From positions 1,358 through 65,357 of the forward strand of contig JAMCZE010000004.1 of NCBI GenBank assembly GCA_023485845.1: a stretch of 64,000 bases of DNA, in the 5' to 3' direction. This document shows positions 786-32,394 of this stretch, piece by piece. Within the stretch, counting starts at the first letter, position 1; every line of letters starts with the position of its first letter. The DNA comes from Patescibacteria group bacterium (GTDB lineage: Bacteria; Patescibacteriota; Microgenomatia; JAMCZE01). The notes below the pieces were generated by a model. That model saw only the letters and a program-made list of their open reading frames with translations. It ran no database searches and was not told the DNA's origin. The position numbers were made by a program, and so were the translations under genes.

Positions 786-1292
786 ATGAATATCCTAATT
801 GTCACTCCGATTTTTTTGCCGGAAGCCAGAGGGCCTGCGCTTTATTGTTATAAGTTGTGCCAAAGGATAGATTCTAAAGTAATTACTTTTACGCAAGCCC
901 CCACCAACATAAAAAATGTTCCTATTTATTCAGTGCCGACCAATGGGGGACCGGTGGCCAGGCAGTGGCGGCTGGCAAGAGCGGTTTGGCATGAAGCTAG
1001 GGATTGCGATGTGATTTATGCCCAAGGGGCGGATGTGGTGGGGCTGGTGTCGGTGCTAGTTGGCAAAATTCTTAAGAAACCGACTGTGGTTAAATTCGTC
1101 GGCGATTTGCCGGCTGAAATAAGACGAGACTTTGGGCGAATGGCCCCATTGGAAACAGTGGCAACCTGGCTTTGTTTGCACTTAACCGACAAAATTATTT
1201 TCCCGGCCAAACATTTGCAGGAGGCGATTGTTAGAAAGTATCTGATTCCAAAATCTAAAACTGTTGTTATTTATAATGCTGTTGATGATTAA
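786..1292 (+). CDS. GT4 glycosyltransferase, N-terminal domain fragment (frameshifted gene)
   Basis: MNILIVTPIF...VVIYNAVDD then stop; typical GT4 N-domain ending at the NGVD-like motif. Confidence 0.6.
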   Translation: MNILIVTPIFLPEARGPALYCYKLCQRIDSKVITFTQAPTNIKNVPIYSVPTNGGPVARQWRLARAVWHEARDCDVIYAQGADVVGLVSVLVGKILKKPTVVKFVGDLPAEIRRDFGRMAPLETVATWLCLHLTDKIIFPAKHLQEAIVRKYLIPKSKTVVIYNAVDD

Positions 1293-1824
1293 AGTTTGCG
1301 CCGGATTTTCCGAGCTGCTGCCGGTGAAAAATGTCGCCGGGGTTATTAATGCCTGCCGGAAGCTAGATGTGAAGTTGTGGATTGTTGGCGCCGGTGGAGA
1401 AGAGAGTCGGCTAAAGAGAATTGCCGGGAAAAATGTCAAGTTTTATGGCCGGGTTCCCAATGCCGCAGTCAGAAAGATAATGGGGAATTCTGATATTTTT
1501 GTTTTGAATTCCCTGCACGAAGGCATGCCGCACGCTCTTTTGGAGGCTTTGGCGGAGAAGGTGCCGGTTGTTGCCACTAAAATTCCGGCGGTGACGGAAA
1601 TTTTGACGGATGGAGAGACAGGGCTGCTGGTGGGACTGGGCAGCGACCAACAATTAACGGCGGCGATCAAACGCCTGGCCGGCGACCAGGCCCTGCGAAA
1701 GAAGTTAGCGGAAAATGGCCGAAAACTTTTTGAACAGAAGTTCACCTGGGCAAGCCATCTTCAGCAGCTATATAATGTTTTCGATGAAGCGGTTAATCGT
1801 TCTGTTGGCGGCAGTTCTTCTTAA
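1276..1824 (+). CDS. GT4/GT1 glycosyltransferase, C-terminal domain fragment (continues 786..1292 in +1 frame)
   Basis: Frame +1 ORF carries the GT1 C-domain motifs (LWIVGAGGE...VKFYGRV...DIFVLNSLHEGMPHALLEALA...PVVAT). It overlaps the end of the N-terminal fragment. Confidence 0.6.
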   Translation: MLLMIKVCAGFSELLPVKNVAGVINACRKLDVKLWIVGAGGEESRLKRIAGKNVKFYGRVPNAAVRKIMGNSDIFVLNSLHEGMPHALLEALAEKVPVVATKIPAVTEILTDGETGLLVGLGSDQQLTAAIKRLAGDQALRKKLAENGRKLFEQKFTWASHLQQLYNVFDEAVNRSVGGSSS

Positions 1825-3073
1825 AAGCCTGGTTTGGATGGCAGTAGTGCCTATCTGGCAGGCTCCGGACGAACAAGCACACTTTGCTCAATTGGAATAC
1901 ATGACAGAGAACAAAACTTTAAGTGTTCCCTCGCTTGACAATCTCTCCAAGGAAATTGCTGTTTCTGAACAGATTTTGGGGACTTTCCGGGATCAATTTG
2001 GCAATAATCAATACACTTATCATCCGGACTACAAAAATCATTCTTTAATTCCAGTGATGCCCATCTCCTGGCGGACAACCTATGTTGGTCGGGAAGCCGC
2101 CGGTTACCCGCCGTTGTATTACCAATTAGCCGAACCCTTTTATAACGCAGTCTACAGCCACAATCTGGTGGATCGGGTGATGGCGGCCAGGATCGTGTCA
2201 GTGATTTGCGTCGTGATTCTAGCAGCGGTGGCCTATCAGATTGGGGGTCTGGTTTTGGCAGTTTTGGTCAGTTTCCAGCCGATGATTTCCTTTGTGGCGG
2301 CCGGTGTTCATCCTGATAATCTGCTTAATTTGCTTTGCTCGTTGGCGATCTGGATGTGCCTTCTAATTTTAAAAAATGGCTTAAGGTGGAAGTATTTGGC
2401 TTTTCTGGCTCTCTCGGTTTTTCTGGCTTGGGAGACAAAGATCTTAATTGTGTTTATGCTACCTGTAATGGGAGCGGTGATTGCCTATAAACTTTTTCGG
2501 GAAACAAAACTGGCCATTTTCTTGGCGACTTTATGTTTGATTGTCCCGGTGGGTGCTTTTGTTTGGCAGTGGACGATTCCCTATATGCCGGTGGTCACCG
2601 TTGCCAGCCCTTTGGCAGGCATGAATTTTGTGGACTACATGAAATTTCGCGGTCCGAAATTGCTGTTTGAAATGTGGCCCTGGTATTGGGGCGTTTTCAA
2701 ATGGCTAGGAGTGACTTTGCCACCATTAGTAATGAAAGTGATCACACGGATTGCTATTCTAGGAGTAATCGGCTTGGGAGTTAGGTTAGTGATAGATAAA
2801 AATAAAAAAATTCTTATCTTCTTTATTCTTGCTTCTAGTTCCTATCTCCTTTATCTCGTTTTGTGGGATTGGCGCCTCATGCAGGCGATCGGCTTTTCCC
2901 AAGGACTCCAGGGCCGTTATCTTTTCCCCAATATCATCCCGCAGATGGCCTTGCTTCTGGCCGGATTAACCGTGTTTAAGCGCTTTGAGAAGCAAATTAG
3001 CACTCTGTTAGTTGTGGGGATGGTCGCCTTGAACATGGTTGCTCTTTACACAGTGTTCCAGAGTTATCATTAA
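1775..3073 (+). CDS. Polytopic membrane protein, DUF2142-like putative GT-C glycosyltransferase
   Basis: Many predicted TM helices. N-terminal signal-anchor MFSMKRLIVLLAAVLL followed by a WQAPDEQAHF motif. Start chosen at the first in-frame ATG before the TM helix; it overlaps the upstream GT4 stop. Confidence 0.55.
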   Translation: MFSMKRLIVLLAAVLLKSLVWMAVVPIWQAPDEQAHFAQLEYMTENKTLSVPSLDNLSKEIAVSEQILGTFRDQFGNNQYTYHPDYKNHSLIPVMPISWRTTYVGREAAGYPPLYYQLAEPFYNAVYSHNLVDRVMAARIVSVICVVILAAVAYQIGGLVLAVLVSFQPMISFVAAGVHPDNLLNLLCSLAIWMCLLILKNGLRWKYLAFLALSVFLAWETKILIVFMLPVMGAVIAYKLFRETKLAIFLATLCLIVPVGAFVWQWTIPYMPVVTVASPLAGMNFVDYMKFRGPKLLFEMWPWYWGVFKWLGVTLPPLVMKVITRIAILGVIGLGVRLVIDKNKKILIFFILASSSYLLYLVLWDWRLMQAIGFSQGLQGRYLFPNIIPQMALLLAGLTVFKRFEKQISTLLVVGMVALNMVALYTVFQSYH

Positions 3074-3074
3074 T

Positions 3075-4607
3075 ATGAAATCGCACCTTTTTCAACTTCT
3101 GCTGGTTCTTCTGGCACTTACCCTGCCGACAATCGGAACCTATTATTTTGGATCCAATGGCATGTATGAATGCCACGATTCTATTATGAGTCCGGTGCGG
3201 CTCTATCATCTTGGAGAGGCTTTGAAACTGGGAATAGTGATGCCTAATTGGCTGCCGACCCTGGCCTCGGGGTTTGGCTCGCCGATTTTTCTTTTCTCCT
3301 GGTTTCTGCCCTATTATTTGGGTGTCCCTCTCCACATGTTGGGCCTAAGTTTGCTGGATGCCACGAAGGTTCTTTTTCTTTTGTCCTGGCTAGCTTCCGG
3401 CGTGGCCATCTATCTGCTGGCAAGAAGATTAACCAGTCATTGGTCGGCGCTGGCGGCCGTTGGCTTTTATCTGCTGGCTCCGTTTCACCTTAATGCCACC
3501 TTTACCCGCTGCAGTTTGGGCGAATCTTGGGCGCTGGTCCTGGTGCCATTGATATTTTTCTTCTTACTTTCCAAAACCCGACGGGCCTTCTTTCTGGCAG
3601 TTTTATCATTGTCTGCCCTGGCCTTGACTCATAACCTTGATTTTATTTTTACTTTGGGCCTGTTGGGTTTGTGGGCAATCTTCTCCCCGGACAGGAAAAG
3701 AGTTATTGTGGTGGCTTTGTTTTCTCTAGGCCTGTCCTGTTTTTTCTGGTTGCCAGCTCTGGCAGAACAGTCCTATCTGCACTATCCCTATTTAGTTAAA
3801 GGAACCTTCCTGCACCAATTTCCGACTTTGTCGGCGCTTTTTAATTCTCCCTGGCAATATGGACCGCCCCTTCCCGAAGACCAAATTCACTCATTATCCT
3901 TTCAATTGGGAAAAATTCACTGGCTAATTATTGCGACGATTCCCCTGATACTTTGGCGCGTCAGAAAGAAAGTGGTCGTTTTTTTGGCTGGTGCTCTTGG
4001 TCTGTCAATTTTTCTCCAATTAAAAATCAGTCTGCCGGTTTGGGATGCCATCCAGGCAATGCAAATTATTGTTTTTCCCTGGCGGCTGCAGTTGGTGACG
4101 ATCTTTGCCGTGGCTCTGTTGGCAGCGTTCCTAGTGAATATTTTGCCCCGACAAAAAATTTTCCTGTTAATTTTTTTGGCTCTTTTGTTGATTGCCAACC
4201 GAAATCATTTTTATCTGCCATTAGGGGATTATGGAGCGGATTCGTATATTGCCCATCTGGATCATGATGGCAGTTCTTGGGGAGAGTATCTGCCGCTTTG
4301 GGTGCCATTGGGCCAGCCTCGAGAGAAAGCTGCTTTGGTGCCGGAATTTTTTCAAGCCGATAAGGCGATGGCGGTGACCGTTGACCGTTATTATTTCCCC
4401 GGCTGGAGAGGTTATCTTGATGGCAAGGAAATTGTCCTTTGGCCAAGCGAGGGAAAAATAACTTTCTGGCTGCCCCCAGGTCAACACCGGCTGACACTGG
4501 TGTTTGGGCAGACGCCGATCCGACAATTGACCACTTTAATTTCCGCTGTTTTCGCTTTATGTTTAATAGGGCTATGGGCAAAAAAATCTCGGCCGTTGGC
4601 ACGGTAA
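3075..4607 (+). CDS. Polytopic membrane protein, putative GT-C family glycosyltransferase
   Basis: ATG 2 nt after the upstream stop; about 12 hydrophobic helices; C-terminal soluble domain. Confidence 0.6.
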   Translation: MKSHLFQLLLVLLALTLPTIGTYYFGSNGMYECHDSIMSPVRLYHLGEALKLGIVMPNWLPTLASGFGSPIFLFSWFLPYYLGVPLHMLGLSLLDATKVLFLLSWLASGVAIYLLARRLTSHWSALAAVGFYLLAPFHLNATFTRCSLGESWALVLVPLIFFFLLSKTRRAFFLAVLSLSALALTHNLDFIFTLGLLGLWAIFSPDRKRVIVVALFSLGLSCFFWLPALAEQSYLHYPYLVKGTFLHQFPTLSALFNSPWQYGPPLPEDQIHSLSFQLGKIHWLIIATIPLILWRVRKKVVVFLAGALGLSIFLQLKISLPVWDAIQAMQIIVFPWRLQLVTIFAVALLAAFLVNILPRQKIFLLIFLALLLIANRNHFYLPLGDYGADSYIAHLDHDGSSWGEYLPLWVPLGQPREKAALVPEFFQADKAMAVTVDRYYFPGWRGYLDGKEIVLWPSEGKITFWLPPGQHRLTLVFGQTPIRQLTTLISAVFALCLIGLWAKKSRPLAR

Positions 4608-5989
4608 TTATCATTTCCATTTTCTTCCGGTTTTTCCGTTTTCCACAGCTGTTTCATTGGACGATGGATGAGGATTTTTGGAGTTATCTGCCGCAAAACA
4701 TCGCCACCGGCTATCATTTCCCGGCGATCGGTGGCCACATCGGCGGCACCGGCCTCTATTCCGGCCCGACGTTTATCTATTTGATGGCCATCCCCGCTAA
4801 AATTTTTTCTGGTAACCCCTTGGGGTTTGGAATTTTGGTGGCGGCGATCGGAGTGTTGACGGCCTATCTAATGTATCTGGTGGGGCGCAGAATGTTTGGT
4901 CTGGCGGTGGGCCTGCTGGCCTCGTTTTTATACTCTTCCTCTTTTCTGATGGCCATTTTTGACCGGCACTATTGGAATGCCTCCCTGACTCCTATCCTGT
5001 CTCTGTTAACTATCTGGTTCGTTTGGGAAGTCCACCAGAAACGTCTCAAATTCGTTATCCCTTTGGCCCTGGAATTGGTGCTGGCCTTTCATGCCCACGG
5101 AACGGGGATGGCACTGCTTATTTTCACTGCCTTGGCCTGGATTTTTTTCCGATTGCCGGTTCGGAGTCGTTGGGTGGCGGCGGGAGTGGGAATCTTTCTC
5201 TTGTTTCAATTGCCGCTGGTTTTCTTTGACGTCCGGCATGACTGGCAAAACACTCGGGCCCTGGCTTCCTATCTGACCACCAGCAAAGGAGGAACGGTGC
5301 CGCTGACTGCCCGAGTGGGGAATGTGGCCCAGGGTTTTGTCTCTGCCGGTTCCCGGCTGGTCTATTTTCCCGCCAAAGACCTGGCCATTGAACAAACGCT
5401 GGGATTGGCTCCCCAATATGCCGCCCTTAAGGGCCAGGCGCCCCTTTGGGCCAGCGCCTTTTTTGCTGTGGCTTTGCTGGCCGCTTTCTTTCTCCCACAA
5501 GCCAGAATGATGCTTCTTTTGGTTGGCTCAACTTTGGTCGGGCTGTTGATTTATAAAGAAAAGATTCCGGAGTATTTTTTTAGTCCCACGTTTGTCCCGT
5601 TATTTTTTATCTTTGCCCTCTTTTTAAAACGGATCGCCCGGCCGTTAACTGTTTTATTTCTTATAATATTTTTCTGCCTTAATCTAAATAATTTGCTGAC
5701 AGTCAAACACACTTTTGGCTATCCCACCCGGCTGGCGGCGGTGCAGGAAGCAATCGCGCAAGTGGGGAATAAACCCTTTGTCCTGGAGGCTAAGTGCGCC
5801 GGCTTTTGCCAGCTGTATGGCTTTCGCTATCTGTTCACCTATTTGCACCACGAACCGGTGGCTTCTTATGTTGACTCCACTTTTCTTTGGCTCTATCAGG
5901 ACCGGTTGCCAAAAGTTGCCCCGCAAAAAAAAGTTCTGTTGAATATGGCTGATGGCAAGGTCAATGTTTATGTTTCTGATTATCGCTAG
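4574..5989 (+). CDS. ArnT/PMT-like (GT39/GT83-type) membrane glycosyltransferase
   Basis: Hydrophobic N-terminus, loop with HFPAIGGHIGG...FIYLMAIP, many TM helices; start at internal ATG (MGKKISAVG) overlapping the upstream gene end. Confidence 0.6.
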   Translation: MGKKISAVGTVIIISIFFRFFRFPQLFHWTMDEDFWSYLPQNIATGYHFPAIGGHIGGTGLYSGPTFIYLMAIPAKIFSGNPLGFGILVAAIGVLTAYLMYLVGRRMFGLAVGLLASFLYSSSFLMAIFDRHYWNASLTPILSLLTIWFVWEVHQKRLKFVIPLALELVLAFHAHGTGMALLIFTALAWIFFRLPVRSRWVAAGVGIFLLFQLPLVFFDVRHDWQNTRALASYLTTSKGGTVPLTARVGNVAQGFVSAGSRLVYFPAKDLAIEQTLGLAPQYAALKGQAPLWASAFFAVALLAAFFLPQARMMLLLVGSTLVGLLIYKEKIPEYFFSPTFVPLFFIFALFLKRIARPLTVLFLIIFFCLNLNNLLTVKHTFGYPTRLAAVQEAIAQVGNKPFVLEAKCAGFCQLYGFRYLFTYLHHEPVASYVDSTFLWLYQDRLPKVAPQKKVLLNMADGKVNVYVSDYR

Positions 5990-7259
5990 CGTTATCTATT
6001 TCATTTCCCGCGGCTGGAATCTGCTGTCCCTGCCGGTGTTTATCGATGAGGCCATATATCTGCGCTGGGCCCAGGACATTATTCATCATGGTTTAATTTG
6101 GGTGTCTTTTTCCGATGGCAAAGAGCCGCTGTTTATCTGGGTGTTGGCGCTTTTTTCCAAATTTATTGCCGACCCGCTTTTGGCCGGGCGGCTGGTGAAT
6201 GTGGTCTCCGGCTGGGGGTTGATGATGGGTGTTTATCTGCTGGCAAAACGATTGCTTAACCAAAAGGCGGCCATTCTGGCGGTGATTCTATATCTCACCA
6301 GCCCGTTTATTCTGTTCTATAACCGGATTGCCTTGCTGGATAATTTTCTGGTTTTTCTGGGGTGCTTTTATTTGCTTTTCCTGGTCAAAAAAAAGCATTT
6401 TTTGGCCGGGGTGTTTCTCGGTCTGGCTCTGATCACCAAGACTAATGCCTTCATTTTTCTGATCGCCCTGCCGTTTTTTTGGCCGGCGCCATCGTTCTTT
6501 CTCGGGCTGGGGCTGGTCTATCTGCCGGTGTTTTTTGCCCCGGGCTACCACAATGTTTTTTCTAAGGACCAAAGTGTTTTCCTGGCATTTTCTCCGGGAC
6601 TCTTCTGGCCGAATTTTAAGATGAGTTTGCGCGACTGGTGGCTTATCTATTTCGGAGCGATTCCTCTTTTGGCGGCCCTTTTGGGCAGTGTCCAGTCGGT
6701 TTTTTTGGCGGCCCTGCTTTTTGGGCCCTGGCTGGTGGAGGCGGCCGTCGGCAAGATTTTCTTTCCTCGCTACCTATTGTTTATGGCCATCCCCGTTTTT
6801 CTTCTGGCGGCCAATTTCCTCCAGCGGCTGCCGCGAAAATTATTAATTGTGTTTTTTCTAATCGCCGTTGCCCAACCGCTGGTTTTATCCAGCTGGATTT
6901 TAAAAGATGTTGCCAGTGCGCCGATTCCGGTGGTGGAGCGGTGGCAATATCTGGAAGGCTGGCCGGCCGGCTATGGCAGTGACCAGCTGGTTAGCTTCCT
7001 GCAGATAAAAGCGAAACAAAAGTCCATCATTGTTGTCACGGAAGAGTTTGGCTTGAATGAAATTCTAAAACTTAAATTTTATGATGATAAAAACGTCACC
7101 GTTAAAACTTTTTCCGGCCTTAACGACCCGATTGCCGGGGACTATCTGGCGCTGACCTACTATTCTCAACCGTCGCCGATCTGGCCGGTGCGGGAAATCG
7201 GCAGCGTCTGTAAGGTACAATGTAAGAATACCATTCGCCTTTATGAAATTACGCGCTAG
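5952..7259 (+). CDS. ArnT/PMT_2-like membrane glycosyltransferase
   Basis: FIDEAIYLRWAQD (DE motif in first periplasmic loop, as in the GT39/83 ArnT family), multiple TM helices. Confidence 0.65.
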   Translation: MARSMFMFLIIASVIYFISRGWNLLSLPVFIDEAIYLRWAQDIIHHGLIWVSFSDGKEPLFIWVLALFSKFIADPLLAGRLVNVVSGWGLMMGVYLLAKRLLNQKAAILAVILYLTSPFILFYNRIALLDNFLVFLGCFYLLFLVKKKHFLAGVFLGLALITKTNAFIFLIALPFFWPAPSFFLGLGLVYLPVFFAPGYHNVFSKDQSVFLAFSPGLFWPNFKMSLRDWWLIYFGAIPLLAALLGSVQSVFLAALLFGPWLVEAAVGKIFFPRYLLFMAIPVFLLAANFLQRLPRKLLIVFFLIAVAQPLVLSSWILKDVASAPIPVVERWQYLEGWPAGYGSDQLVSFLQIKAKQKSIIVVTEEFGLNEILKLKFYDDKNVTVKTFSGLNDPIAGDYLALTYYSQPSPIWPVREIGSVCKVQCKNTIRLYEITR

Positions 7260-8451: not shown

Positions 8452-9196
8452 ACCCACCGTTACCGGCCACTGTCTGGTTAAAAATGAGGACCGGTTTGTC
8501 TGGTTTGCGATTAACTCCGTTTTGCCCTATTTGGACAAGCTTTTAATTTATGACACCGGCTCGGTGGACCGGACGGTGGAAATTATTAAATCCATAAACA
8601 GCCCTAAGATTATTTTTGAAGAGAAGGGGGCGGTGACAGCCGAAGGAATCGTCAAATTGCGCAATGAAATGATTGCCAGAACCAAAACGGACTGGTTCTT
8701 TCTGCTTGACGGTGACGAGGTTTGGAACTTCGGGCAGATAAAAGACTACCTGGATTTCACCCTGGGGCAGCCAAAAAACATATTGGCCACTTTTTTGCAC
8801 ACGCGAAATTGTGCTGGGGATGTTTATCATTATCGTGACGAGTCGTCCGGCCGGTATGAAATTGCCGGCCGACGGGGACACTTAAACATCCGCGCCTATC
8901 GCCAAAGCGTCCGCTGGCAGGGTGTTTATCCGCTGGAGTGGGCGGTGGATTCTGCTGACCAAAAAGCCCTGGCGTTTTTTGCCGGCTATTATTGGCACCT
9001 GACCCATCTGCGCCGTTCCTCGGTTCCGGCCCCGACGATGGGTTTTCGCAAGCATATCTATGACTTCGGGATTGCCGCCGATCCGAAGAATTTGCCGGAA
9101 GTTTTTGCCAATCATCCTCAACCCCGGCGAGGTTTTTCTTATCTGGCAATTGCCCTTTTGGAAACGCCGCTGAAAAAAATCAAGAGAAAGTTATGA
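8441..9196 (+). CDS. GT2 family glycosyltransferase (small, soluble)
   Basis: YDTGSVDRT (DxD-type motif) and LLDGDE; 251 aa. Confidence 0.7.
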   Translation: MNHKPTVTGHCLVKNEDRFVWFAINSVLPYLDKLLIYDTGSVDRTVEIIKSINSPKIIFEEKGAVTAEGIVKLRNEMIARTKTDWFFLLDGDEVWNFGQIKDYLDFTLGQPKNILATFLHTRNCAGDVYHYRDESSGRYEIAGRRGHLNIRAYRQSVRWQGVYPLEWAVDSADQKALAFFAGYYWHLTHLRRSSVPAPTMGFRKHIYDFGIAADPKNLPEVFANHPQPRRGFSYLAIALLETPLKKIKRKL

Positions 9197-22010: not shown

Positions 22011-22059
22011 AGAGAATTATATAGCATAATATTAGTTGTGTCAAGACCAAGATGACAAG

Positions 22060-25167: not shown

Positions 25168-25174
25168 TTTGCCT

Positions 25175-26374
25175 ATGAAGATCCTGATGCTCACCCCATA
25201 TGTTCCGTATCCGCCAAACTCCGGCGGCCAGACAAGAACGTTTAACCTCATCAAAAACCTTTCCAAAAAGCACGAAATCAGCTCATTTTCTTTCCTTCGC
25301 ACTGATCATCCCGAACCGGATCTGACCCAATTGCGCAAATATTGTCGCCAAGTCCGGGTTTTTCGCCGGAAAAAATCCTTCGCGTCCATAGCTAAAATAT
25401 TTAAAACCGGCTTCTCCCTTTATCCCTATTTGGTGAACATGTATCTGGAGGACAAGATCAAGCAGGCTTTGGCCCAAGAGTTAGCCGGTGGCCAATATGA
25501 TCTGATTCACGTTGAGACCTACTATATTATGGCCAATCTCCCACCGACAATTGTTCCTGTTCTCTTAGCAGAACAGACAATTGAATACCAAGTCTACCAG
25601 CATTTTGCCCAAACCACCCGATTCTGGCCGGCCAAGCCGTTTCTGGCTGTTGATGTGGCAAAACATAAATATTGGGAGAAACATTTCTGGCAGGAGGCCC
25701 GTAAAGTGGTGGCCATGTCACAGGATGACAAAGAGAAGATGCTGGAGTTGGTGCCAGACCTGGATGTGAGCGTTGTCCCTAACGGGGTGGACAGCGGTTT
25801 TTTTGCCAAAAAAATTGCTTTGCAAAAAAGAGAATTTCCTCGGCTGCTGTTTGTTGGTAATTTCAACTGGTTGCAGAACCGGGAAGCGGCGGAGGTGCTT
25901 GTGCACCAAATTTGGCCGTTGGTTAAGGTTAAACTGCCCAGGGCACGGCTGTGGATTGTCGGCCGGGAACCAACGCCGGATATCAAAGCTTTGGCGGGCG
26001 ATGATGTGACGGTGTCCGGTGATGTGGAAGATATAAGAACTGCTTATCAGGGATCGGATCTGTTAATTGCTCCAATTTATGGCGGTGGCGGGACCAGGTA
26101 TAAAATTCTGGAGGCAATGGCCTCAGGCTTGCCGGTGGTCAGCACTCAGATCGGCATCAAGGGCATTGGGGCGCAAAATCGCAAGCATGCCTTGATCACT
26201 AATAATCAGCAACAGTTGGCCGATGACGCGGTGGAGCTCCTCACTAACCGTCAGACAGCCAAAAAAATTGCCCAACAAGCTAAAGAATTAGTGGTTAAAA
26301 ACTTTGACTGGACAGGGATCTCTGCCGGTTTGGATAAAATATATGAAGAAACGGCTTTCCGTCATCATTCTTAA
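25175..26374 (+). CDS. GT4 glycosyltransferase
   Basis: MKILMLTPYVPYPPNSGGQTR..., C-terminal ILEAMASGLPVVST. The track ORF starts at TTG; ATG 25175 was chosen. Confidence 0.8.
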   Translation: MKILMLTPYVPYPPNSGGQTRTFNLIKNLSKKHEISSFSFLRTDHPEPDLTQLRKYCRQVRVFRRKKSFASIAKIFKTGFSLYPYLVNMYLEDKIKQALAQELAGGQYDLIHVETYYIMANLPPTIVPVLLAEQTIEYQVYQHFAQTTRFWPAKPFLAVDVAKHKYWEKHFWQEARKVVAMSQDDKEKMLELVPDLDVSVVPNGVDSGFFAKKIALQKREFPRLLFVGNFNWLQNREAAEVLVHQIWPLVKVKLPRARLWIVGREPTPDIKALAGDDVTVSGDVEDIRTAYQGSDLLIAPIYGGGGTRYKILEAMASGLPVVSTQIGIKGIGAQNRKHALITNNQQQLADDAVELLTNRQTAKKIAQQAKELVVKNFDWTGISAGLDKIYEETAFRHHS

Positions 26375-27191
26375 CTTTAACACTCGGGAGCTGTTGCGGG
26401 GCTGCTTGGCATCGCTGCCGACCAATTCGGACTATGAAATCGTTGTGGTGGACAACGCCAGCACTGACGGTTCAATGGCGATGGTGAAAGCGGGATTCCC
26501 AATGGTGACCTTAATCGCCAATAAAATCAATCTGGGCTTTGGCCCGGCTAACAACGCGGCGGCAAAAAAAGCTAAGGGGGACTACGTGGTTTTTCTAAAT
26601 GCCGATATGAAACTGGAGAAGGAAACGCTGTCATTCCCCTTGGATTACATTTCATCCCACCCCGATGTGGGAGCGGTGACAGCCAAAACGGTTTTGGGTG
26701 ACGGTTCGTTGGATGCCACCTGCCACCGCGGTTTTCCCACTCCCTGGAGCGCCTTCTGCTATTTTTCCGGCCTTGCTAAAATTTTCCCCCACAGTCGGCT
26801 GTTTGCCGGCTACACCATGGGCTATCTTGATCCTGACACTGCCCACGAAGTGGAAGCGATCAACGGCGCCTATTTTATGATGCCCCGGATTCTTGGCAAC
26901 AGACTTGATTGGTTTGACAAAGACTTTTTCTGGAAAGGGGAAGATTTGGATTTGTGCTATCGGATAAGGCAGGCCGGTTATAAGATTATGTATCTGCCCC
27001 AGGTGAAGATCTGGCACTTTAAAGGTTCATCCGGCGGCCACCGGCCCGGCAGCAAAACCCTCAAAGCCCGGTTTGAAGTGATGCGGATTTTTTATCGGAA
27101 GCACTACACTAATAAATATCCCCACTGGGTGAAAACACTAGTTTTTTTGGGCATTGACCTGCGGGAGTTTCTAGCCAATCTCAGCCTATGA
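26343..27191 (+). CDS. GT2 family glycosyltransferase (rhamnosyltransferase-like)
   Basis: LSVIILNFNTRELL...VVVDNASTDGS...FLNADM...GAYFMMPR. Confidence 0.75.
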   Translation: MKKRLSVIILNFNTRELLRGCLASLPTNSDYEIVVVDNASTDGSMAMVKAGFPMVTLIANKINLGFGPANNAAAKKAKGDYVVFLNADMKLEKETLSFPLDYISSHPDVGAVTAKTVLGDGSLDATCHRGFPTPWSAFCYFSGLAKIFPHSRLFAGYTMGYLDPDTAHEVEAINGAYFMMPRILGNRLDWFDKDFFWKGEDLDLCYRIRQAGYKIMYLPQVKIWHFKGSSGGHRPGSKTLKARFEVMRIFYRKHYTNKYPHWVKTLVFLGIDLREFLANLSL

Positions 27192-28237
27192 GAATCGGTA
27201 TCGACGGGCGACTATGGAACGAAACCGGTGTTGGGCGCTATATTCGGGCGCTCTTTAAATATTTGCCAAAAGACCAGGAATTCGTCTGGTTTTTTGGCAA
27301 GAAAGAATTTAAATCGGTTGAGATGCCCCCGAAATGGAAAAAAGTTCTGGTTGACATCCACTGGCACACTCTGCGGGAGCAATTAGTTTTGCCCTGGATT
27401 TTTGCCCGGGAAAACTTAGACCTGCTCCATTTCCCCTATTTTTCTTTTCCCATACTCTATCCCGGACGGTTTGTTATCACCATTCACGATCTAATATTTG
27501 ATCACTATAAAACCGGCAAATGGTCCACTCTTCCCGGCTGGTTGTATGACATCAAAAAACTGGGTTATCACCTGGTTAATTGGATTTCAGTTTTCCGGGC
27601 CGAAAAAATCTTCACCCTTTCCAATGATGCCAAAAATGAGCTGATTTCCCACTATCAGGCCAGCCCGAATAAAGTGGCGGTGATTTATGAATCGGGAAAA
27701 CTAGAGGCGGTGGGTTCAGTGGGGAAATCACCAATGCCCGGCCCCTATCTTTTATACGTGGGCAATGCCCATCCCCATAAAAACATTGGCGCTTTAATTA
27801 AAGCCGCGGAAATTTTAAAGATGAAACTGGCGATCGTCGGCTATGACCAGTTTTTCCAGTCACGGTTGCCGAAATCGCCATATGTAACGGTGGTGGGGGA
27901 GGTGCCCAACAACAAGATTGCTGACTGGTACCGCCATGCGGCGGCGTTAGTCACAGCATCGAAGATGGAGGGCTTTGGCATTCCCCCGCTGGAGGCCATG
28001 TCTGTCGGTTGTCCGGCTATCGTTTCCGACATCCCGGTGTTCCACGAAGTCTATGGTGACGCGGCCATTTATTTTAATCAAAATGATCCCCATGACATCG
28101 CCCGGGTGATTAAAGAAACGTTGGTGGACAAGAAATTAATTTCTACCCAAACTAAAAAGGGCTACGCCCAAGCGGCAAAATATAGTTGGGAGAGATGTGT
28201 CAAACAGACATTTGGGGTTTATGAAGCAGCAGCATAA
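27188..28237 (+). CDS. GT4 glycosyltransferase
   Basis: MRIGIDGRLWNETGVGRY..., EGFGIPPLEAMSVGCPAIVSDIPVFHEV. Confidence 0.8.
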   Translation: MRIGIDGRLWNETGVGRYIRALFKYLPKDQEFVWFFGKKEFKSVEMPPKWKKVLVDIHWHTLREQLVLPWIFARENLDLLHFPYFSFPILYPGRFVITIHDLIFDHYKTGKWSTLPGWLYDIKKLGYHLVNWISVFRAEKIFTLSNDAKNELISHYQASPNKVAVIYESGKLEAVGSVGKSPMPGPYLLYVGNAHPHKNIGALIKAAEILKMKLAIVGYDQFFQSRLPKSPYVTVVGEVPNNKIADWYRHAAALVTASKMEGFGIPPLEAMSVGCPAIVSDIPVFHEVYGDAAIYFNQNDPHDIARVIKETLVDKKLISTQTKKGYAQAAKYSWERCVKQTFGVYEAAA

Positions 28238-28712
28238 GCATTACGAGGTTGACCAGTCAAATAAAGTTGAACAAACCTGGAAAGACACGGTTCTTGCTTT
28301 GTCTAACGACAGCGAATTTACGCTTCTACTTAGGGCCAGAGACAAGAGGGTTATCCAGGAGCAGTTTCGACTACGGGGTGAACCGCGGAATTTCATTCTC
28401 TTTACGTTTTCCGCGCTGTTAGTGTTCTTGTTGAAAAATACCAAACCAACCACATTAGTCACGGTCGATCTCGAGTATAAAGACAGTGAGAACATTATTC
28501 ACGATAGGTTGATTAATTACTCTCGTTTATTAAAGTTTGACCTAAACAAAGTTCCAGTAGTATTCAAATCAATTGGGAAAAAATCTCCTGCGCACAAGCT
28601 GGCCGGTAAGGTTTCGTCCGGAAAACAAAACCCGGATTTAAGAATTAGTCTAGAGGAATTCCTGCAAGTGCTGTTTCCAAAAGAAAAAGATCGGGCATCC
28701 CGAGGGACCTAG
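28221..28712 (+). CDS. Hypothetical protein (no recognisable family), one hydrophobic segment
   Basis: 163 aa ORF overlapping the GT4 stop; AT-richer; MKQQHKHYEVDQ...RNFILFTFSALLVFLL... Confidence 0.35.
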   Translation: MKQQHKHYEVDQSNKVEQTWKDTVLALSNDSEFTLLLRARDKRVIQEQFRLRGEPRNFILFTFSALLVFLLKNTKPTTLVTVDLEYKDSENIIHDRLINYSRLLKFDLNKVPVVFKSIGKKSPAHKLAGKVSSGKQNPDLRISLEEFLQVLFPKEKDRASRGT

Positions 28713-28744
28713 GAGTGTTTAACGCCGGACTGGTTACCGGACGG

Positions 28745-28774
28745 TCGACACCCATCCCGATCAATGTGTAGAAT
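28745..28774 (+). promoter_or_regulatory. Sigma70-like promoter TCGACA-18-TAGAAT upstream of the next GT4 gene
   Basis: TCGACA and TAGAAT hexamers with 18-nt spacer, about 10 nt upstream of ATG 28785. This is the first real intergenic gap after a long run of overlapping genes. Confidence 0.4.
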
Positions 28775-28784
28775 TTAGCATAAT

Positions 28785-29885
28785 ATGCCTAAATTGTCAA
28801 GTCCAAAAGTCGCTTTAGTTTATGATCGGGTTAATAAGTTTGGTGGGGCGGAGCGGGTGCTGTTGGCGCTGCATGAGATTTGGCCGGAAGCACCGCTTTA
28901 CACTTCTGTTTATGACAAAAAGCGGACCCCATGGGCCGATGCCTTCGAAGTGAGGACATCATTTCTTCAAAAATTACCCCTGCCAAAAAGTAAACATGAA
29001 TATTACCCATTTTTAATGGGTCCGGCTTTTGAGACGTTCAATTTTGATGAATTTGACATTGTCATCTCCGTTACCCATGAATTTTCCAAGGCAATTATCA
29101 CTAAATCGGGAACCCGGCACATTTGCTATTGTTTAAACCCGGTTAGTTATCTTTGGTCCGGACATGATGATTATTTTTCCGGCAAACCCGATTGGTTTAA
29201 GGACCTCACCCAACCAATGATTAACTACTTGCGTCTTTACGACAAAGTGATTTGTCGTCGGCCGGATAAATATATTGCCATTTCCAAAGTCGTTAAGGAA
29301 AGAATAAAGAAATATTATGGCCTCAATAGTGACGTGATTTATCCGCCAGTGGTTTTAAAAGACGTGGTCTTGAGTCGCCAAGACCACGTCTTGCGAAGTG
29401 ATTTTTTCCTTGTTGTTTCCCGGCTTGTTCCCAATAAACGGGTGGATTTAGCTGTCAAGGCATTCAATGAGTTAGGTTGGCCAATAAAAATTGTGGGTGT
29501 CGGTTCACAGGAAGAAAAACTTAAAGGAATGGCTAAGAAAAACATTGAGTTTTTAGGCCAGTTGACAGATGCCGAGCTGGCACGGTACTATGAATCTTGC
29601 CGCGCTCTGATTGAGCCGGGCGAGGTGGACTTTGGATTGGTGGCGCTGGAGGCGCAAAGTTATGGGAAACCGGTGGTGGCCTATGGCGCTGGCGGGTCGC
29701 GGGAAACGGTGATTCCCAGCAAAACCGGATTCTTTTTTTCAGCGCCGACAGCCAAAAGTTTAGTGGAGACAATTTCCGAAGTTAATCTTGATAAAATTGA
29801 TCCGAATGATTGTGCTACCAACGCGGCTAAATTTTCGAAAGAGCGGTTTAAGAAAGAGTTTTTAGACTATGTACGACATTCTTAA
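28785..29885 (+). CDS. GT4 glycosyltransferase
   Basis: 366 aa, C-terminal GT1 fold motifs (VALEAQSYGKPVVAYGAGGSRET). Confidence 0.8.
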   Translation: MPKLSSPKVALVYDRVNKFGGAERVLLALHEIWPEAPLYTSVYDKKRTPWADAFEVRTSFLQKLPLPKSKHEYYPFLMGPAFETFNFDEFDIVISVTHEFSKAIITKSGTRHICYCLNPVSYLWSGHDDYFSGKPDWFKDLTQPMINYLRLYDKVICRRPDKYIAISKVVKERIKKYYGLNSDVIYPPVVLKDVVLSRQDHVLRSDFFLVVSRLVPNKRVDLAVKAFNELGWPIKIVGVGSQEEKLKGMAKKNIEFLGQLTDAELARYYESCRALIEPGEVDFGLVALEAQSYGKPVVAYGAGGSRETVIPSKTGFFFSAPTAKSLVETISEVNLDKIDPNDCATNAAKFSKERFKKEFLDYVRHS

Positions 29886-30504
29886 AAGGATAATTGACAT
29901 TGTCGGCGCGGGGGTCCTGCTGATTATTTTTTCCCCCATCATGATTTTGACAGCAATTGCTATTAGACTGGATTCGTCAGGACCGATTTTTGCCGATACC
30001 CCGCCGCGTGTTGGCCGGGGAGGGAAACTAATTCATGTTTACAAATTTCGCTCGATGATTCCCAATGCCCAGAAGTTATTGATGACTGATCCCAGGCTAA
30101 AAAGGCTTTTCAGACAGTACAAAGAAAATAACTATAAACTCAAAGATGACCCGCGAATTACCAGGGTGGGGGCTTTCATTCGCCGGCACTCAATTGATGA
30201 ATTCCCGCAATTTATCAACGTTCTCATTGGTAATATGAGCTTAGTCGGCCCCCGGCCATACTACGAATTTGAACTTAAAGAACAGGTGGCAAAATTTCCG
30301 GAGGTTAAGCCGTTGTTAAATGATGTCCATTCGGCACTGCCGGGAATTACCGGAGAGTGGCAAGTCTCTGGGCGCAGCGAAGTGGATTTTGATAAGAGAA
30401 TTCAGTTGGATGCGCAGTATGCCCGCAAGAGGGATATTTTATATGATATATTAATAATGTTGAAAACTCCCTGGGCGATTATCCACGGCACGGGAGCTTA
30501 TTAA
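29869..30504 (+). CDS. Small monotopic phosphoglycosyl transferase (bacterial sugar transferase, PglC/WbaP C-terminal-domain type)
   Basis: [20 protein letters not shown]...KFRSM...[21 protein letters not shown] are the hallmark motifs of the PF02397 initiating transferase. Confidence 0.85.
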
Positions 30505-30507
30505 TTT

Positions 30508-32394
30508 ATGGACGAAGAAATAAAAGAGATTAAGTTGGACAGTCAGCCGACGTTAACGCCGGTTAAGCCGAAGCGGTCGTTTAAAAAAATTCTTCTCGCG
30601 GCCGCGGCGGTGCTAGTTTTTCTTGGCGTAATTGTCGGCATTCCCTTGGCCAAGGCTTATGTTGACGGCAAAGCGGCCTATCAGCAAACGCTGGCTGTCA
30701 AGGATGCCATTAAATCCTCGGATTTACCACAGGCACAGGTTGCGATCAAGGCCACCCGGACAAAATTGCAGGCAGTTCGGGGCGACCTGAAATTAATTGG
30801 TTGGACCAGTTTTATCCCTTTTCTGGGTGGCTACACTTCCGATGCTAACCACATGATTAACGCGGCGGATTATGGCTTGCAGGCGGCCGATGTGGTGGTG
30901 GCCGGAGTGGAACCATACGCCGACCTTTTGGGTCTTAAGGGCAAGGGCACGTTTACCGGTGGCACGGCCGAGGATCGAATTGCGGAGATGGTCCAGACTT
31001 TGGGCAAAGTGACACCGCAGATTGACGATGTGGCGGCAAAAGTTAAGCTAGTTCGTCAGGAAGTGGATAAAGTCGACCCTGGTCGCTACCCGGGTAATAT
31101 TAATTCGCAATTAACCGACGCGAAGAATTTAATTGATTTGGCGGACAACTTCTTGACGCAGGCCCGGCCGATGGTTAAGCAGTTGCCGGATATGCTTGGG
31201 GCTAACGGTGAGCGCAAGTATATGGTGCTTTTCCAAAACGACAAAGAACTGCGCCCCACCGGCGGATTTATCACCGCCTACGCGATTTTTCGCGTTGACC
31301 AGGGCCGGATTCACCTGGACTCCTCGGATGATATTTATAAGCTTGATGACACCATCACTAAGCATGTGGCGCCGCCGGATCCGATCTCTCGGTATCTTAA
31401 TGTTTATGGCTGGCGGCTGCGTGACTCAAACTTTTCTCCGGATTTTCCCTCGTCAATGCAGGTGTTCACCGATTTATATAACTCTTCCTCAGCCAAACAG
31501 AATTTAAACGGAATCATCGCCATGGACACCGATGTCCTCACCAAAATGATGGGCGTGTTGGGGCCGATTGATGCCTATGGCACGACGTTCACCACCAAAA
31601 CCGTTCCCACCTGCGATTGCCCGATGGTGATTTATGAATTGGAACAATATGCTGACCAGCCAACCAACTATGTGCGCGGCAGCCGTAAAGACATTATCGG
31701 CGTTCTTCTTCAAACAATGATGCAAAAAGCGATGGGATCGGCTCGGGAGGTCTACGCCCCCCTAATTCAGACAGCGATGGCCGAAGCGACACAAAAACAC
31801 ATTTTGTTTTACCTCTATAATGCCGACGCCCAGGCGGGGGTTAATGCTCTGGGTTTTGGCGGGGCGATTAAAACTAACCCTGGCGGTGACTACTTGCATG
31901 TTAACGACGCCAATCTGGCCGGAGCAAAGTCTAATCTTTATGTAACGCAAGCCGTTAAACAGGAAGTTTCGGTGACAGACACAGGGGCAGATGTGACCCT
32001 GACATTGAATTACCGCTATCCCCATCAGGCGGACAATTGCTCCCTAGAGAGAAAAACTGGCCTATGTCTGGCGGGAATCTACCGCGATTATTTACGGGTA
32101 TATCTGCCATTAGGAGCCACCATTGGTGAAGTTCGCGGTTTTGAAAACACCAGCAAAACTTTCCAGGATCTAAATCACACGGTGGTGGACGGTTTCTTCA
32201 CGGTTGTCCCCGAAGGGCTGGCCAAAATTCAGATTTCGTATAAAGTCTCGGGAAACTTCAAAAAAGACGGTGTTTATAAAAGTCTGATCCAAAAGCAGCC
32301 GGGGACAGCGGGCAATCAATACACGCTAATTGTTAATGGGAAACAGCAGGTCTTCAACCTGACCCAGGATCAGGAAATCAGTGTTAAACTCTAG
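30508..32394 (+). CDS. DUF4012 domain-containing membrane-anchored protein
   Basis: 628 aa, N-terminal TM anchor, ERKYMVLFQNDKELRPTGGFITAYAIFRVDQGRIHL (the conserved DUF4012 core). It typically sits next to the sugar transferase. Confidence 0.75.
   Translation: MDEEIKEIKLDSQPTLTPVKPKRSFKKILLAAAAVLVFLGVIVGIPLAKAYVDGKAAYQQTLAVKDAIKSSDLPQAQVAIKATRTKLQAVRGDLKLIGWTSFIPFLGGYTSDANHMINAADYGLQAADVVVAGVEPYADLLGLKGKGTFTGGTAEDRIAEMVQTLGKVTPQIDDVAAKVKLVRQEVDKVDPGRYPGNINSQLTDAKNLIDLADNFLTQARPMVKQLPDMLGANGERKYMVLFQNDKELRPTGGFITAYAIFRVDQGRIHLDSSDDIYKLDDTITKHVAPPDPISRYLNVYGWRLRDSNFSPDFPSSMQVFTDLYNSSSAKQNLNGIIAMDTDVLTKMMGVLGPIDAYGTTFTTKTVPTCDCPMVIYELEQYADQPTNYVRGSRKDIIGVLLQTMMQKAMGSAREVYAPLIQTAMAEATQKHILFYLYNADAQAGVNALGFGGAIKTNPGGDYLHVNDANLAGAKSNLYVTQAVKQEVSVTDTGADVTLTLNYRYPHQADNCSLERKTGLCLAGIYRDYLRVYLPLGATIGEVRGFENTSKTFQDLNHTVVDGFFTVVPEGLAKIQISYKVSGNFKKDGVYKSLIQKQPGTAGNQYTLIVNGKQQVFNLTQDQEISVKL

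Follow-up and report, generated by a model that had tools for sequence, protein, structure and literature searches.

Gene Content and Layout of the Locus

A large cluster of glycosylation genes occupies positions 786-32394 of a 64,000-nucleotide stretch of contig JAMCZE010000004.1 (forward-strand positions 1,358 to 65,357; GenBank assembly GCA_023485845.1, Patescibacteria group bacterium), hereafter the window. A first-pass annotation, made from the letters alone, had described it as a supercluster with about 10 paralogous GT-C-type membrane proteins. Within 786-32908, all open reading frames (ORFs) reaching 150 aa were searched against Pfam, and NCBIfam matches were used in addition. The 29 such ORFs within 786-32394 encode ten GT-C proteins (lettered A to J by position), eight glycosyltransferases of family GT4 (one of them split), three of family GT2 (named here by their starts, 8441, 12638, and 26304), and one each of a Wzx flippase, a WcaF/WbbJ-type acetyltransferase, a PglC-type transferase, and a DUF4012 protein (Table 1). 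The last four had all been named at first pass, and each is now recovered by profile. The earlier count of nine GT4 holds for ORFs and drops to eight for genes, 786-1292 and 1264-1824 being halves of one, while only three of the four announced GT2 were found.

The near-total co-direction with overlapping ends that had been described is real: 28 of the 29 ORFs lie on the plus strand, and at most junctions the neighboring genes share 4-40 nt or stand less than 15 nt apart. Intergenic gaps longer than 50 nt number just three (14154-14251, 21979-22059, and 28713-28784). The G+C content of the window is ~47%, with no compositional break at the locus, and Rfam and tRNA scans of the window returned no match.

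The left edge is formed by a sugar-nucleotide epimerase gene on the minus strand. On the right, the DUF4012 gene is followed by RecO (32381), ~3 kb of ORFs without family, an NYN gene, GlyRS, a small membrane-anchored protein, and MraZ. The last of these (38731) begins the division and cell wall (dcw) cluster 6.3 kb past the DUF4012 gene, so the locus does not run straight into that cluster, as had been thought; the RecO to GlyRS genes stand between. The dcw/peptidoglycan set is complete (RsmH, FtsI, three Mur ligases, MurB, MurA, MraY, FtsW, MurG, FtsA, and FtsZ), which implies that a polyprenyl-phosphate carrier is in use.

Table 1. Genes of the locus in window coordinates, with the profile matches, motifs, and distribution among related loci that identify them.
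Feature	Position	Strand	Evidence and remarks
NAD-dependent sugar-nucleotide epimerase/dehydratase, N-terminal 251 aa	1-753	-	Runs off window start; Epimerase 205 bits, GDP_Man_Dehyd 176 bits; complete in L001 (315 aa)
Split GT4	786-1824	+	N-domain ORF 786-1292 (Glyco_transf_4), C-domain ORF 1264/1276-1824 (Glycos_transf_1, 109 bits), different frames
GT-C protein A, DUF2142	1775-3073	+	PF09913 60.4 bits; PDEQAHF after TM1; start as called in L002
GT-C protein B, PTPS_related-like	3075-4607	+	PF10131 24.9 bits vs cut-off 26.4, E 8.7e-6; ~9-10 TM helices, ~100-aa outside loop ahead of last TM
GT-C protein C, PMT_2-like	4574-5989	+	PF13231 25.8 bits vs 26.1, E 1.4e-5; TMDEDFW after TM1; C-terminal outside domain ~99 aa; counterpart in L083 38% identical
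GT-C protein D, PMT_2	5964-7259	+	PF13231 46.4 bits; FIDEAIY after TM1
Wzx-type MOP flippase	7243-8451	+	Polysacc_synt 51 bits, Polysacc_synt_3 35 bits, both above cut-off; weak NCBIfam matches to TuaB, MOP flippase
Soluble GT2	8441-9196	+	Glycos_transf_2 40.8 bits; directly between Wzx and E
GT-C protein E, DUF2079	9193-10545	+	PF09852 158 bits; GFFDQLIYE in loop 1
Two GT4	10542-11645, 11650-12663	+	Glycos_transf_1 and Glyco_transf_4 on each
GT2, one C-terminal TM helix	12638-13579	+	Glycos_transf_2 109 bits; conserved neighbor upstream of F
Inserted gene, non-glycosylation, weak DUF3800	13560-14153	+	PF12686 E 0.0085; absent from all 80 related loci
GT-C protein F, PMT_2, core	14252-15517	+	PF13231 46.7 bits; LWLDEA after TM1; orthologue in 49 related loci
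GT4, core	15514-16542	+	In 55 related loci
GT-C protein G, 343 aa, TM-only	16526-17557	+	No Pfam model; FFQDD after TM1
GT-C protein H, PMT_2-like	17474-18739	-	PF13231 25.9 bits vs 26.1, E 1.3e-5
GT-C protein I, divergent PMT_2/ArnT-like	18711-19838	+	RLYRF then FGFDQARD; narrow family
GT4, core	19840-20880	+	In 60 related loci
Hexapeptide-repeat O-acetyltransferase, WcaF/WbbJ type, core	20861-21475	+	Hexapep; NCBIfam WcaF family 90 bits; in 67 related loci, median identity 59%
Inserted NYN-domain gene	21472-21978	+	PF01936 66 bits; absent from related loci
Protein J, 1035 aa, WaaL/Wzy_C-like and ArnT/PMT_2-like halves	22060-25167	+	Wzy_C 56 bits (PF04932), PMT_2 54 bits
GT4, core	25136-26374	+	In 70 related loci
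GT2, core	26304-27191	+	In 75 related loci
GT4, core	27188-28237	+	In 59 related loci
Family-less ORF	28197-28712	+	No counterpart in relatives; flanking GT4 genes abut in L083
GT4, core	28785-29885	+	In 50 related loci
PglC-type polyprenyl-phosphate glycosylphosphotransferase, single-helix, 211 aa	29869-30504	+	Bac_transf 194 bits; TIGR03025 241 bits, matching C-terminal catalytic domain of WbaP/WcaJ only; in 47 related loci
DUF4012 protein	30508-32394	+	PF13196 99.5 bits; in 39 related loci; one N-terminal TM helix, ~580-aa outside domain; stop overlaps RecO start

Ten GT-C Membrane Proteins from at Least Five Families

The presence of about ten GT-C-type proteins rich in transmembrane (TM) segments was confirmed, at ten, by a combination of Pfam, hhalign, Foldseek, and a shared topology. 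Half of them pass a Pfam cut-off, namely A (DUF2142), D, F, and J (PMT_2), and E (DUF2079), and three more (B, PTPS_related; C and H, PMT_2) fall 0.2-1.5 bits below it at E ~1e-5. TM segments were counted by a Kyte-Doolittle scan, which gives crude numbers (6-11 hydrophobic segments per candidate, in keeping with the ~8-13 TM helices of GT-C enzymes), with orientation taken from the positively charged N-termini. All ten display the same pattern of a short positively charged N-terminus, TM1, and a loop of 34-88 residues with Asp or Glu near TM1. The acids occur as PDEQ in A, YECHD in B, MDED in C, IDEA in D, FFDQ in E, LDEA in F, FQDD in G, FDQARD in I, and ADW..RQADT in J, where D570 and D578 are invariant; the loop of H holds a single Glu (WPEN). 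The motifs picked out at first pass sit where they were said to sit: LWLDEA in F, FIDEAIY in D, RLYRF with FGFDQARD in I, and RLYRF with WRQADT in J. In solved GT-C enzymes the catalytic Asp is located after TM1 (PMC8035078, PMC11127046); the ten proteins, with an acid-bearing outside loop at this very site, thus fit the GT-C pattern. The alternative that these ORFs are transporters of unrelated families was rejected, with Wzx the sole transporter among them.

Proteins G and I lie outside the Pfam models: I has no match above cut-off and G none even at E <=10. The family profiles of G, I, and J gave no sequence-level match to the PDB at E <=1-10, and a comparison of folds was therefore needed. 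The I family (40 homologues in a search of 5.8 billion proteins, with PMT_2 present in its distant members) aligns by hhalign to residues 547-970 of J over 391 columns with 97.6% probability and E 3e-12; H and I also give weak GT87 matches. The G family has 91 homologues, of which the named ones belong to Gottesmanbacteria or Patescibacteria and the distant ones carry PMT_2 or DUF2079, and its FFQDD motif is nearly invariant across 34 homologues. An AlphaFold model of G (predicted local distance difference test, pLDDT, 91.9; ~11 membrane helices) retrieved GT-C structures as all of its top 15 Foldseek matches in the PDB, including STT3, ArnT, DPY19, and GPI-MT-I. The probabilities are 0.91-1.0 and the query-normalized template-modeling scores (TMq) 0.40-0.53, at E values of just 0.014-0.2. 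By hhalign the G family is linked only weakly to J (28%, E 6e-4), though within the expected region, the C-terminal half. G is thus predicted by its modeled fold to be a GT-C enzyme and is the weakest case of the ten.

The term "paralogous" applied at first pass stands at the level of the superfamily and fails for recent duplication, which was rejected on an all-against-all blastp comparison. The closest two, F and the C-terminal half of J, are 27% identical over 199 residues, and for most pairs the similarity is not significant; weaker matches link B and D (E 7.5e-6), C and I (E 2e-5), and H and D (E 1.4e-5). As a control, the equally TM-rich Wzx reached at best E 0.7 against the GT-C candidates. 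With at least five different families represented, the GT-C genes are, judged by sequence, old distinct subfamilies gathered in one locus and not a recent expansion. We propose that all ten use polyprenyl-phosphate sugars at the outer face of the membrane.

The only minus-strand gene of the ten, H, overlaps G convergently by 84 nt at its 3′ end and I divergently by 29 nt at its 5′ end, and it is also on the minus strand in the nearest relative (L003).

Protein J, a Fusion of WaaL/Wzy_C-like and ArnT/PMT_2-like Halves

Protein J, whose start on record is ATG 22060, matches Wzy_C in its N-terminal half and PMT_2 in its C-terminal half, where RLYRF precedes WRQADT. The Wzy_C domain is common to WaaL ligases, Wzy polymerases, and PglL-type O-oligosaccharyltransferases. 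A Foldseek search with the model of J retrieved STT3, ALG12, ArnT, AglB, PglB, and AftA at E 3e-6 to 5e-4, together with the WaaL O-antigen ligase (7tpg_B, E 3.8e-3, target-normalized score TMt 0.60). More than 1600 homologues exist, annotated generically as "glycosyltransferase family 39" or "O-antigen ligase family", some of which list PF02366 PMT as well; those with a named host belong to Gottesmanbacteria, the Microgenomates group, or Patescibacteria.

Of 72 complete related loci, 29, all from Gottesman-type genomes, encode the two halves as one fused protein, and the other 43 as adjacent, co-oriented genes. This constant fusion or adjacency points to a functional coupling of the two halves (a Rosetta-stone argument). 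When 1.84 billion representative proteins were scanned with the N-terminal half, 752 clusters were retrieved; among the best 149 of these, 61 are fused and 62 stand-alone, and the few named ones are Pacebacteria and Microgenomates.

Residue conservation was read from an alignment of 269 family members. Wherever a residue is aligned to them, R386, R431, G437, and G440 do not vary. At position 426, 260 of 261 aligned members have Asp and none has His, giving the signature D426-N-DYLRSLGET-G-LL-G, that is, D426-N-x3-R-x5-G-x2-G. WaaL ligases carry the signature H-[NSQ]-x9-G-x2-[GTY] with an essential His, present in the Escherichia coli enzyme in the form H-N-x9-G-x2-G (HNEIIEAGSLKGLMG). D426 would, by motif spacing only, be the counterpart of that His. 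The equivalence depends on spacing because a profile alignment of the J N-terminal half with E. coli WaaL is not significant at the signature and aligned only the LTASR/LTQTR stretch. If the equivalence is correct, the N-terminal half of J represents a distinct Wzy_C subfamily, its chemistry perhaps unlike that of ligases and PglL-type transferases.

A Conserved Core with Variable GT-C Modules

Relatives were gathered by scanning one genome per species. This yielded 288 genomes with J relatives, from which the best 80 loci (reaching 10 kb from J) were compared; the left arm of the locus (1715-10545) was compared in three of the related sequences (L001, L002, and L083) only. The 80 loci are labeled Gottesman-, Curtiss-, Beckwith-, or Woesebacteria, other Microgenomates, or carry placeholder names. 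As the first-pass idea of a lineage-specific surface glycosylation system predicts, J and its syntenic neighbors were found only in genomes labeled as Microgenomates group or Patescibacteria or bearing generic or placeholder labels. For the locus as a whole that idea needs trimming, in that other genomes have the right half as well and the variable GT-C part comprises E, G, H, and I.

The order conserved among relatives is GT4, GT2 (12638 type), F, [methyltransferase], GT4, GT4, acetyltransferase, [GT2], J, followed by GT4, GT2, GT4, GT4, [ManC-like], PglC, DUF4012, RecO, and GlyRS. The bracketed genes (the methyltransferase, the GT2 before J, and a ManC-like GDP-mannose pyrophosphorylase) are present in many relatives and absent from the window. 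This core order is kept in Gottesman-, Curtiss-, Beckwith-, and Woesebacteria at a fixed position beside recO and glyS, with PglC-DUF4012-RecO always at its end; the comparison of synteny across related genomes that the first-pass annotation had proposed as a check shows a core shared by several Microgenomates phyla. The right half of the locus is a conserved core common to Microgenomates, with J at its center, consisting of F, four or five GT4, a GT2, the acetyltransferase, J, PglC, and DUF4012. A horizontal-transfer island is unlikely, since the locus does not depart in GC from the remainder of the window and the core is syntenic across phyla.

The GT-C complement is partly variable. In 34 related loci the median number of GT-C-like genes per ~23 kb is 3 and the maximum 5; the window has 5 in the same span and 5 more in the left arm. 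G, H, and I are found in only 5-6 related loci. The locus L083, whose J is 63% identical, contains C, D, Wzx, GT2, and G as well; E, one GT4, H, and I are absent from it, their place being taken by a methyltransferase and an epimerase. Its C and D are 38-39% identical to those of the window, its soluble glycosyltransferases 46-76% (most 58-76%), so the membrane proteins C and D diverge faster than the soluble enzymes. This genome thus stands at the high end of GT-C counts, with a phylum-spanning core to which variable GT-C and glycosyltransferase modules are added. The gene immediately preceding F codes for a GT2 anchored by one C-terminal TM helix in 30 of 44 loci, and that preceding J does so in 62 of 79; in the window, the place before J is occupied by the NYN gene 21472.

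Several genes belong to the locus of relatives and not to that of the window. Between the last GT4 and PglC stands the ManC-like gene, the methyltransferase follows F, and an EamA transporter and a YfhO-family GT-C also occur. Examples from this set are L015 17395-18573, L015 5348-6175, L082 8072-9058, and L059 12-1952. These genes hint at a mannose-containing, methylated glycan in those lineages. The left 12.8 kb of the window is 100% identical to contigs of two public sequencing runs (L001 and L002), both of which end exactly at 12831, inside GT2 12638. The locus in exactly this form is carried by the samples SRR10278331 and SRR10267473. One of the two samples contains, in addition, a version that is related yet distinct (L084), which suggests that strains with alternative versions coexist.

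A Proposed Pathway for a Surface Heteroglycan

We read the locus as an operon-like assembly line for a Wzx/Wzy-type, undecaprenyl-linked surface heteroglycan with GT-C tailoring outside the membrane, and give this reading a probability of roughly 55%. The host would be a single-membrane, Gottesmanbacteria-like member of Microgenomates, and the acceptor of the glycan may be wall, protein, or lipid. Family or fold, topology pattern, core synteny, and the fusion or adjacency of J are observed directly; the steps below are drawn from family membership and gene order.

The carrier would be undecaprenyl phosphate, already required by the peptidoglycan genes 6 kb downstream. The PglC-type enzyme (29869-30504) would load a sugar-1-phosphate onto it at the inner membrane face, and the GT4 and GT2 enzymes would then build an oligosaccharide, with O-acetylation by the WcaF/WbbJ-like enzyme and a nucleotide sugar supplied by the epimerase. 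Once the lipid-linked unit has been flipped outward by Wzx, the WaaL/Wzy_C-like half of J could either polymerize the lipid-diphosphate-linked glycan or transfer it en bloc to the final acceptor. The ArnT/PMT_2-like half and the nine other GT-C proteins are predicted to add single sugars outside the membrane, using polyprenyl-monophosphate sugars as donors and the growing glycan or its acceptor as targets. Two candidate modules for this step are the pair of GT2 12638 and F and the trio of Wzx, GT2 8441, and E. DUF4012, a domain enriched in CPR (candidate phyla radiation) and Gram-positive bacteria (PMC6744442), might work with the primer on the outer face. The extra GT-C genes A-E and G-I would form a lineage-variable decoration set, as would suit a surface antigen or attachment structure that diversifies.

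Two anchors of this scheme, the priming phosphoglycosyl transferase (Bac_transf, TIGR03025) and Wzx, are found above cut-offs. The tailoring step has a precedent in Gram-positive bacteria. There, a GT-A enzyme loads a single sugar onto undecaprenyl phosphate, the product is moved outward by a flippase of the GtrA or Wzx type, and a GT-C protein (PMT_2, YfhO, or without Pfam model) attaches the sugar to a wall polymer outside the cell; the GT-A and GT-C genes typically adjoin, as in the pairs csdAB, csdCD, and csdEF (PMC8035078). PMT_2 and DUF2142 proteins paired with GT2 are found in the variable parts of wall-polysaccharide loci (PMC8035078, PMC9746298), DUF2142/GT2 pairs among them in the variable part of the Streptococcus thermophilus rgp loci (PMC9746298). 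Given their conserved direct adjacency, we liken the GT2 upstream of F and J to the csd pairs. The window also has a Wzx-GT2-DUF2079 triplet, and its single Wzx could flip a monophosphate donor, as GacK does (PMC8035078).

Several observations weigh against the proposed pathway. Proteins with full-length similarity to ArnC, GtrB, CsbB, or DPMS were not found among the GT2 enzymes, leaving no confident polyprenyl-phosphate-sugar synthase in the window. GT2 12638 is a candidate for this role, but its similarity to ArnC, DPMS, and GtrB is N-terminal only, to ~residue 124, and it resembles many other GT2 enzymes in the same way; the assignment of 12638 and 26304 as synthases of the ArnC/GtrB/DPMS type is not supported, the similarity being confined to the N-terminal part, to ~residue 145. 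Neither a GtrA-type flippase nor an LCP wall ligase nor an ABC (ATP-binding cassette) exporter was detected among the window ORFs scanned. Wzz was likewise absent from the ORFs of at least 150 aa in 786-32908 and from most such ORFs elsewhere in the window, and could be encoded elsewhere or replaced by DUF4012. There is one Wzx only, though two kinds of lipid-linked cargo may need flipping, and one GT4 (786-1824) is split. The model of J has moderate confidence (pLDDT 72.7; predicted template-modeling score, pTM, 0.51), and the Asp at the position of the WaaL/PglL signature His means that its chemistry may differ from that of ligases and polymerases.

Relation to Known Systems

The closest parallels are the wall-polysaccharide loci of Gram-positive bacteria (Lactococcus lactis cwps/csd, S. 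thermophilus rgp, Streptococcus pyogenes gac, and Bacillus anthracis gts; PMC8035078, PMC9746298). Both encode cytoplasmic GT4/GT2 enzymes for an undecaprenyl-linked glycan (a predicted one here) and a Wzx-type flippase, both contain GT2/GT-C pairs (PMT_2, DUF2142, or without Pfam model) that add side sugars outside the cell or, here, would do so, and both combine a conserved and a variable region in a single-membrane host. In contrast to the one to three GT-C genes of the Gram-positive loci, ten stand in one block here, and a GtrA-type flippase, LCP ligase, rhamnan ABC exporter, and dTDP-rhamnose genes are missing. The WaaL-like/ArnT-like fusion has no described counterpart in those loci.

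With the Wzx/Wzy pathways of O-antigen and capsule, the locus shares a phosphoglycosyl-transferase primer, cytoplasmic glycosyltransferases, an acetyltransferase, Wzx, and a Wzy_C protein. The first-pass statement that this is something other than a normal O-antigen locus was accordingly too strong, for the full Wzx/Wzy logic is kept (primer, GT4/GT2, acetyltransferase, Wzx, and Wzy_C). The sole Wzy candidate is the Wzy_C half of J, a domain that fits a polymerase, a ligase, or an O-oligosaccharyltransferase alike. This half matches the fold of WaaL (PDB 7TPG), the Arg of its LTASR being paired with E. coli LTQTR and the G-x2-G spacing kept; unlike WaaL, it has a family-wide Asp for the signature His and a GT-C protein that is fused to it or always follows. 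A lipid A-core acceptor is not expected here, in contrast to O-antigen pathways, and no Wzz was found in the window ORFs scanned.

The GT-C proteins themselves resemble ArnT (GT83) and the PMT_2/GT39-like RgtA-D in their multi-TM core, acidic motif after TM1, and small C-terminal outside domain. ArnT structures were matched by Foldseek with G (5f15 and 5ezm) and J (5f15), whereas the identity to solved structures is too low for a sequence match, and the ArnA-D genes of the 4-amino-4-deoxy-L-arabinose (Ara4N) pathway are absent. The cluster for mycobacterial arabinogalactan and lipoarabinomannan, the best-known example of its kind, likewise co-encodes many different GT-C enzymes (Emb, Aft, and Mpt), which build one envelope polymer outside the membrane with polyprenyl-phosphate sugars. 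The families differ, however: the present locus has no Arabinose_trans, GT87 matches are weak, the proteins are smaller, and the backbone is of the PglC/Wzx/Wzy_C kind. In the exopolysaccharide/capsular polysaccharide (EPS/CPS) locus of Bifidobacterium longum 105-A, a priming glycosyltransferase is followed by DUF4012, with glycosyltransferases and a flippase, as here; that locus differs in its full-length CpsD/WelE-type primer, its Wzz, and the lack of a GT-C array (PMC5412050).

Alternative Readings

The alternative that survives best, although we consider it unlikely, is protein O-glycosylation of an S-layer, pilins, or other surface proteins, a possibility raised at first pass. The Wzy_C half of J would then be an O-oligosaccharyltransferase like PglL/PilO or the WsaB/WsfB of Firmicutes that glycosylate their S-layer, and some PMT_2-type GT-C proteins would O-glycosylate Ser/Thr directly, as Pmt does. 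The Wzy_C domain that J has in common with PglL-type enzymes suits this proposal; the signature His essential in PglL and WaaL, however, is Asp in 260 of 261 members of the J family. The PglC-type primer is typical of protein-glycosylation pathways, and some J homologues match PF02366 PMT, but the window proteins scanned have neither PF02366 nor MIR domains at E <=0.01 and their small C-terminal domains are ArnT-like. CPR cells lack a Gram-negative envelope, and with it the lipid A-core acceptor of a WaaL-type ligase, and Microgenomates show an enrichment of sortase and pilus families (PMC6744442). Yet S-layer or pilin genes do not lie within the locus, and the nearest precedents for its GT2/PMT_2 and GT2/DUF2142 pairs serve to decorate teichoic acids or wall polysaccharides, not proteins (PMC8035078, PMC9746298). 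None of the tests run favors protein glycosylation.

Improbable in our view is a membrane-anchored lipoglycan built largely outside the cell, as are mycobacterial lipomannan, lipoarabinomannan, and arabinogalactan, for which a short GT4-made primer would be flipped and then extended by GT-C proteins acting as linkage-specific polymerizing or branching transferases on polyprenyl-phosphate sugars. Ten GT-C proteins from at least five families do recall the mycobacterial cell-wall cluster with its Emb and Aft enzymes, and AftA, AftB, AftD, EmbB, and PimE are among the Foldseek matches of J and G. Most of the GT-C proteins here, though, resemble ArnT in their small size and lack the large carbohydrate-binding domains that Emb and AftD have. 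The weak GT87 matches of H and I, the GDP-mannose pyrophosphorylase of relatives' loci, and the membership of the cytoplasmic mannosyltransferases PimA/PimB in GT4 point the same way as the Foldseek matches, but no polyprenyl-phosphate-mannose synthase was identified and the window has no ManC gene. The PglC-type transferase, Wzx, and the Wzy_C protein indicate instead a lipid-diphosphate-linked repeat-unit pathway.

Least probable, by a hair, is a mosaic "glyco-island" of independent modules for different surface molecules beside the conserved core, some of them decaying: modules do vary between close relatives (as seen in L083), one GT4 is split, three unrelated genes (DUF3800-like, NYN, and family-less) sit at operon junctions, and a distant G homologue lies in an unrelated neighborhood (L085), but the co-direction and overlapping ends of the 28 ORFs, the left-arm block C-D-Wzx-GT2 common to a relative only 63% identical in J (L083), and the presence of one primer, one Wzx, and one Wzy_C-type protein in 31 kb argue for a single main pathway. 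This mosaic is partly compatible with a Wzx/Wzy-type heteroglycan, as the tailoring modules might act on other polymers too.

Novelty and Significance

Literature searches returned no description of this locus, of the J fusion, or of GT-C-rich clusters in Microgenomates. The kinds of enzyme and the pathway logic are already known; new are the conserved fusion or pair, the Asp signature, two narrow GT-C families without Pfam model, and the scale of GT-C genes in a reduced genome. The genomes of CPR/Patescibacteria are tiny, their presumed mode of life is attachment to other cells, and their envelope chemistry is, to our knowledge, essentially uncharted. In such an organism, ~31 kb are devoted to one surface-glycan locus. 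The core holds a fixed place by recO, glyS, and the division/peptidoglycan genes across phyla, and its product would therefore be a basic envelope component and not an accessory capsule. For glycobiology, the gain is a conserved fusion of a WaaL/Wzy-type with an ArnT-type enzyme. The Asp-for-His ligase-like/GT-C fusion, the PglC-DUF4012 pair, and the two narrow GT-C families provide targets for experiment.

A bolder reading, which we hold to be doubtful, is that the WaaL-like/ArnT-like pair constitutes an undescribed bifunctional class defining the main envelope glycoconjugate of Microgenomates, with the GT-C set diversifying the layer. Were this true, one half would glycosylate or prime an acceptor from a polyprenyl-monophosphate sugar and the Asp-bearing half would move a lipid-diphosphate-linked glycan onto the primed site. 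The variable GT-C surface layer might then determine host-cell attachment and phage resistance of these episymbiotic ultra-small bacteria.

Split and Inserted Genes, Intergenic Sites, and Flanks

In the split GT4 the linker usual between the two domains seems shortened. The same sequence is found in two separate SRA assemblies, which makes a random sequencing error unlikely; the gene is probably a pseudogene or a two-piece enzyme.

Each of the inserted ORFs 13560, 21472, and 28197 overlaps the stop of an upstream glycosyltransferase gene and precedes one of the three gaps of the locus. ORF 28197-28712 may be an insertion or no gene at all. The pattern ATAATA-N2-14-TGTCAA has three copies in 64 kb (14265-14279, 22026-22044, and 28780-28800), which occur only in these gaps, upstream of F, J, and the GT4 at 28785; 0.05 copies are expected, for a pattern derived from these same sites. 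The three best sigma-70-like matches of the region lie at the same places on the opposite strand. The pattern is not conserved in related loci, and with a self-derived motif lacking conservation in relatives we do not claim a regulatory element. In the promoter and terminator scan, terminator-like matches are inflated by T-rich coding sequence of membrane proteins.

Downstream of the locus, the stretch 32951-36550 between RecO and GlyRS has the lowest GC content of the window (0.41). It holds several ORFs without Pfam match (32951-33601, plus 33604-34191 and 35289-35783 on the minus strand) and a second NYN-domain gene (35969-36550). Its ORFs have no counterpart in related loci, where GlyRS closely trails RecO, and it may be inserted material. 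Directly after GlyRS, 37798-38298 encodes a small protein that has a TM helix at its N-terminus and a linker rich in Ser, Thr, and Pro; ~50% identical in 6 related loci, it is possibly a surface protein.

Within the dcw cluster (42059-46011), the first Mur ligase after FtsI has just 357 aa, without an N-terminal Mur ligase domain in Pfam, and a 360-nt gap separates it from the next ligase. MurB (46763-47710) is on the strand opposite to the other dcw genes. At the far end of the window, the minus strand carries a further GT4 gene (62503-63516) and, cut by the window end, the first part of one that is GT2-like (63479-64000). Past the cell-division genes there is thus evidence of another glycosyltransferase cluster.

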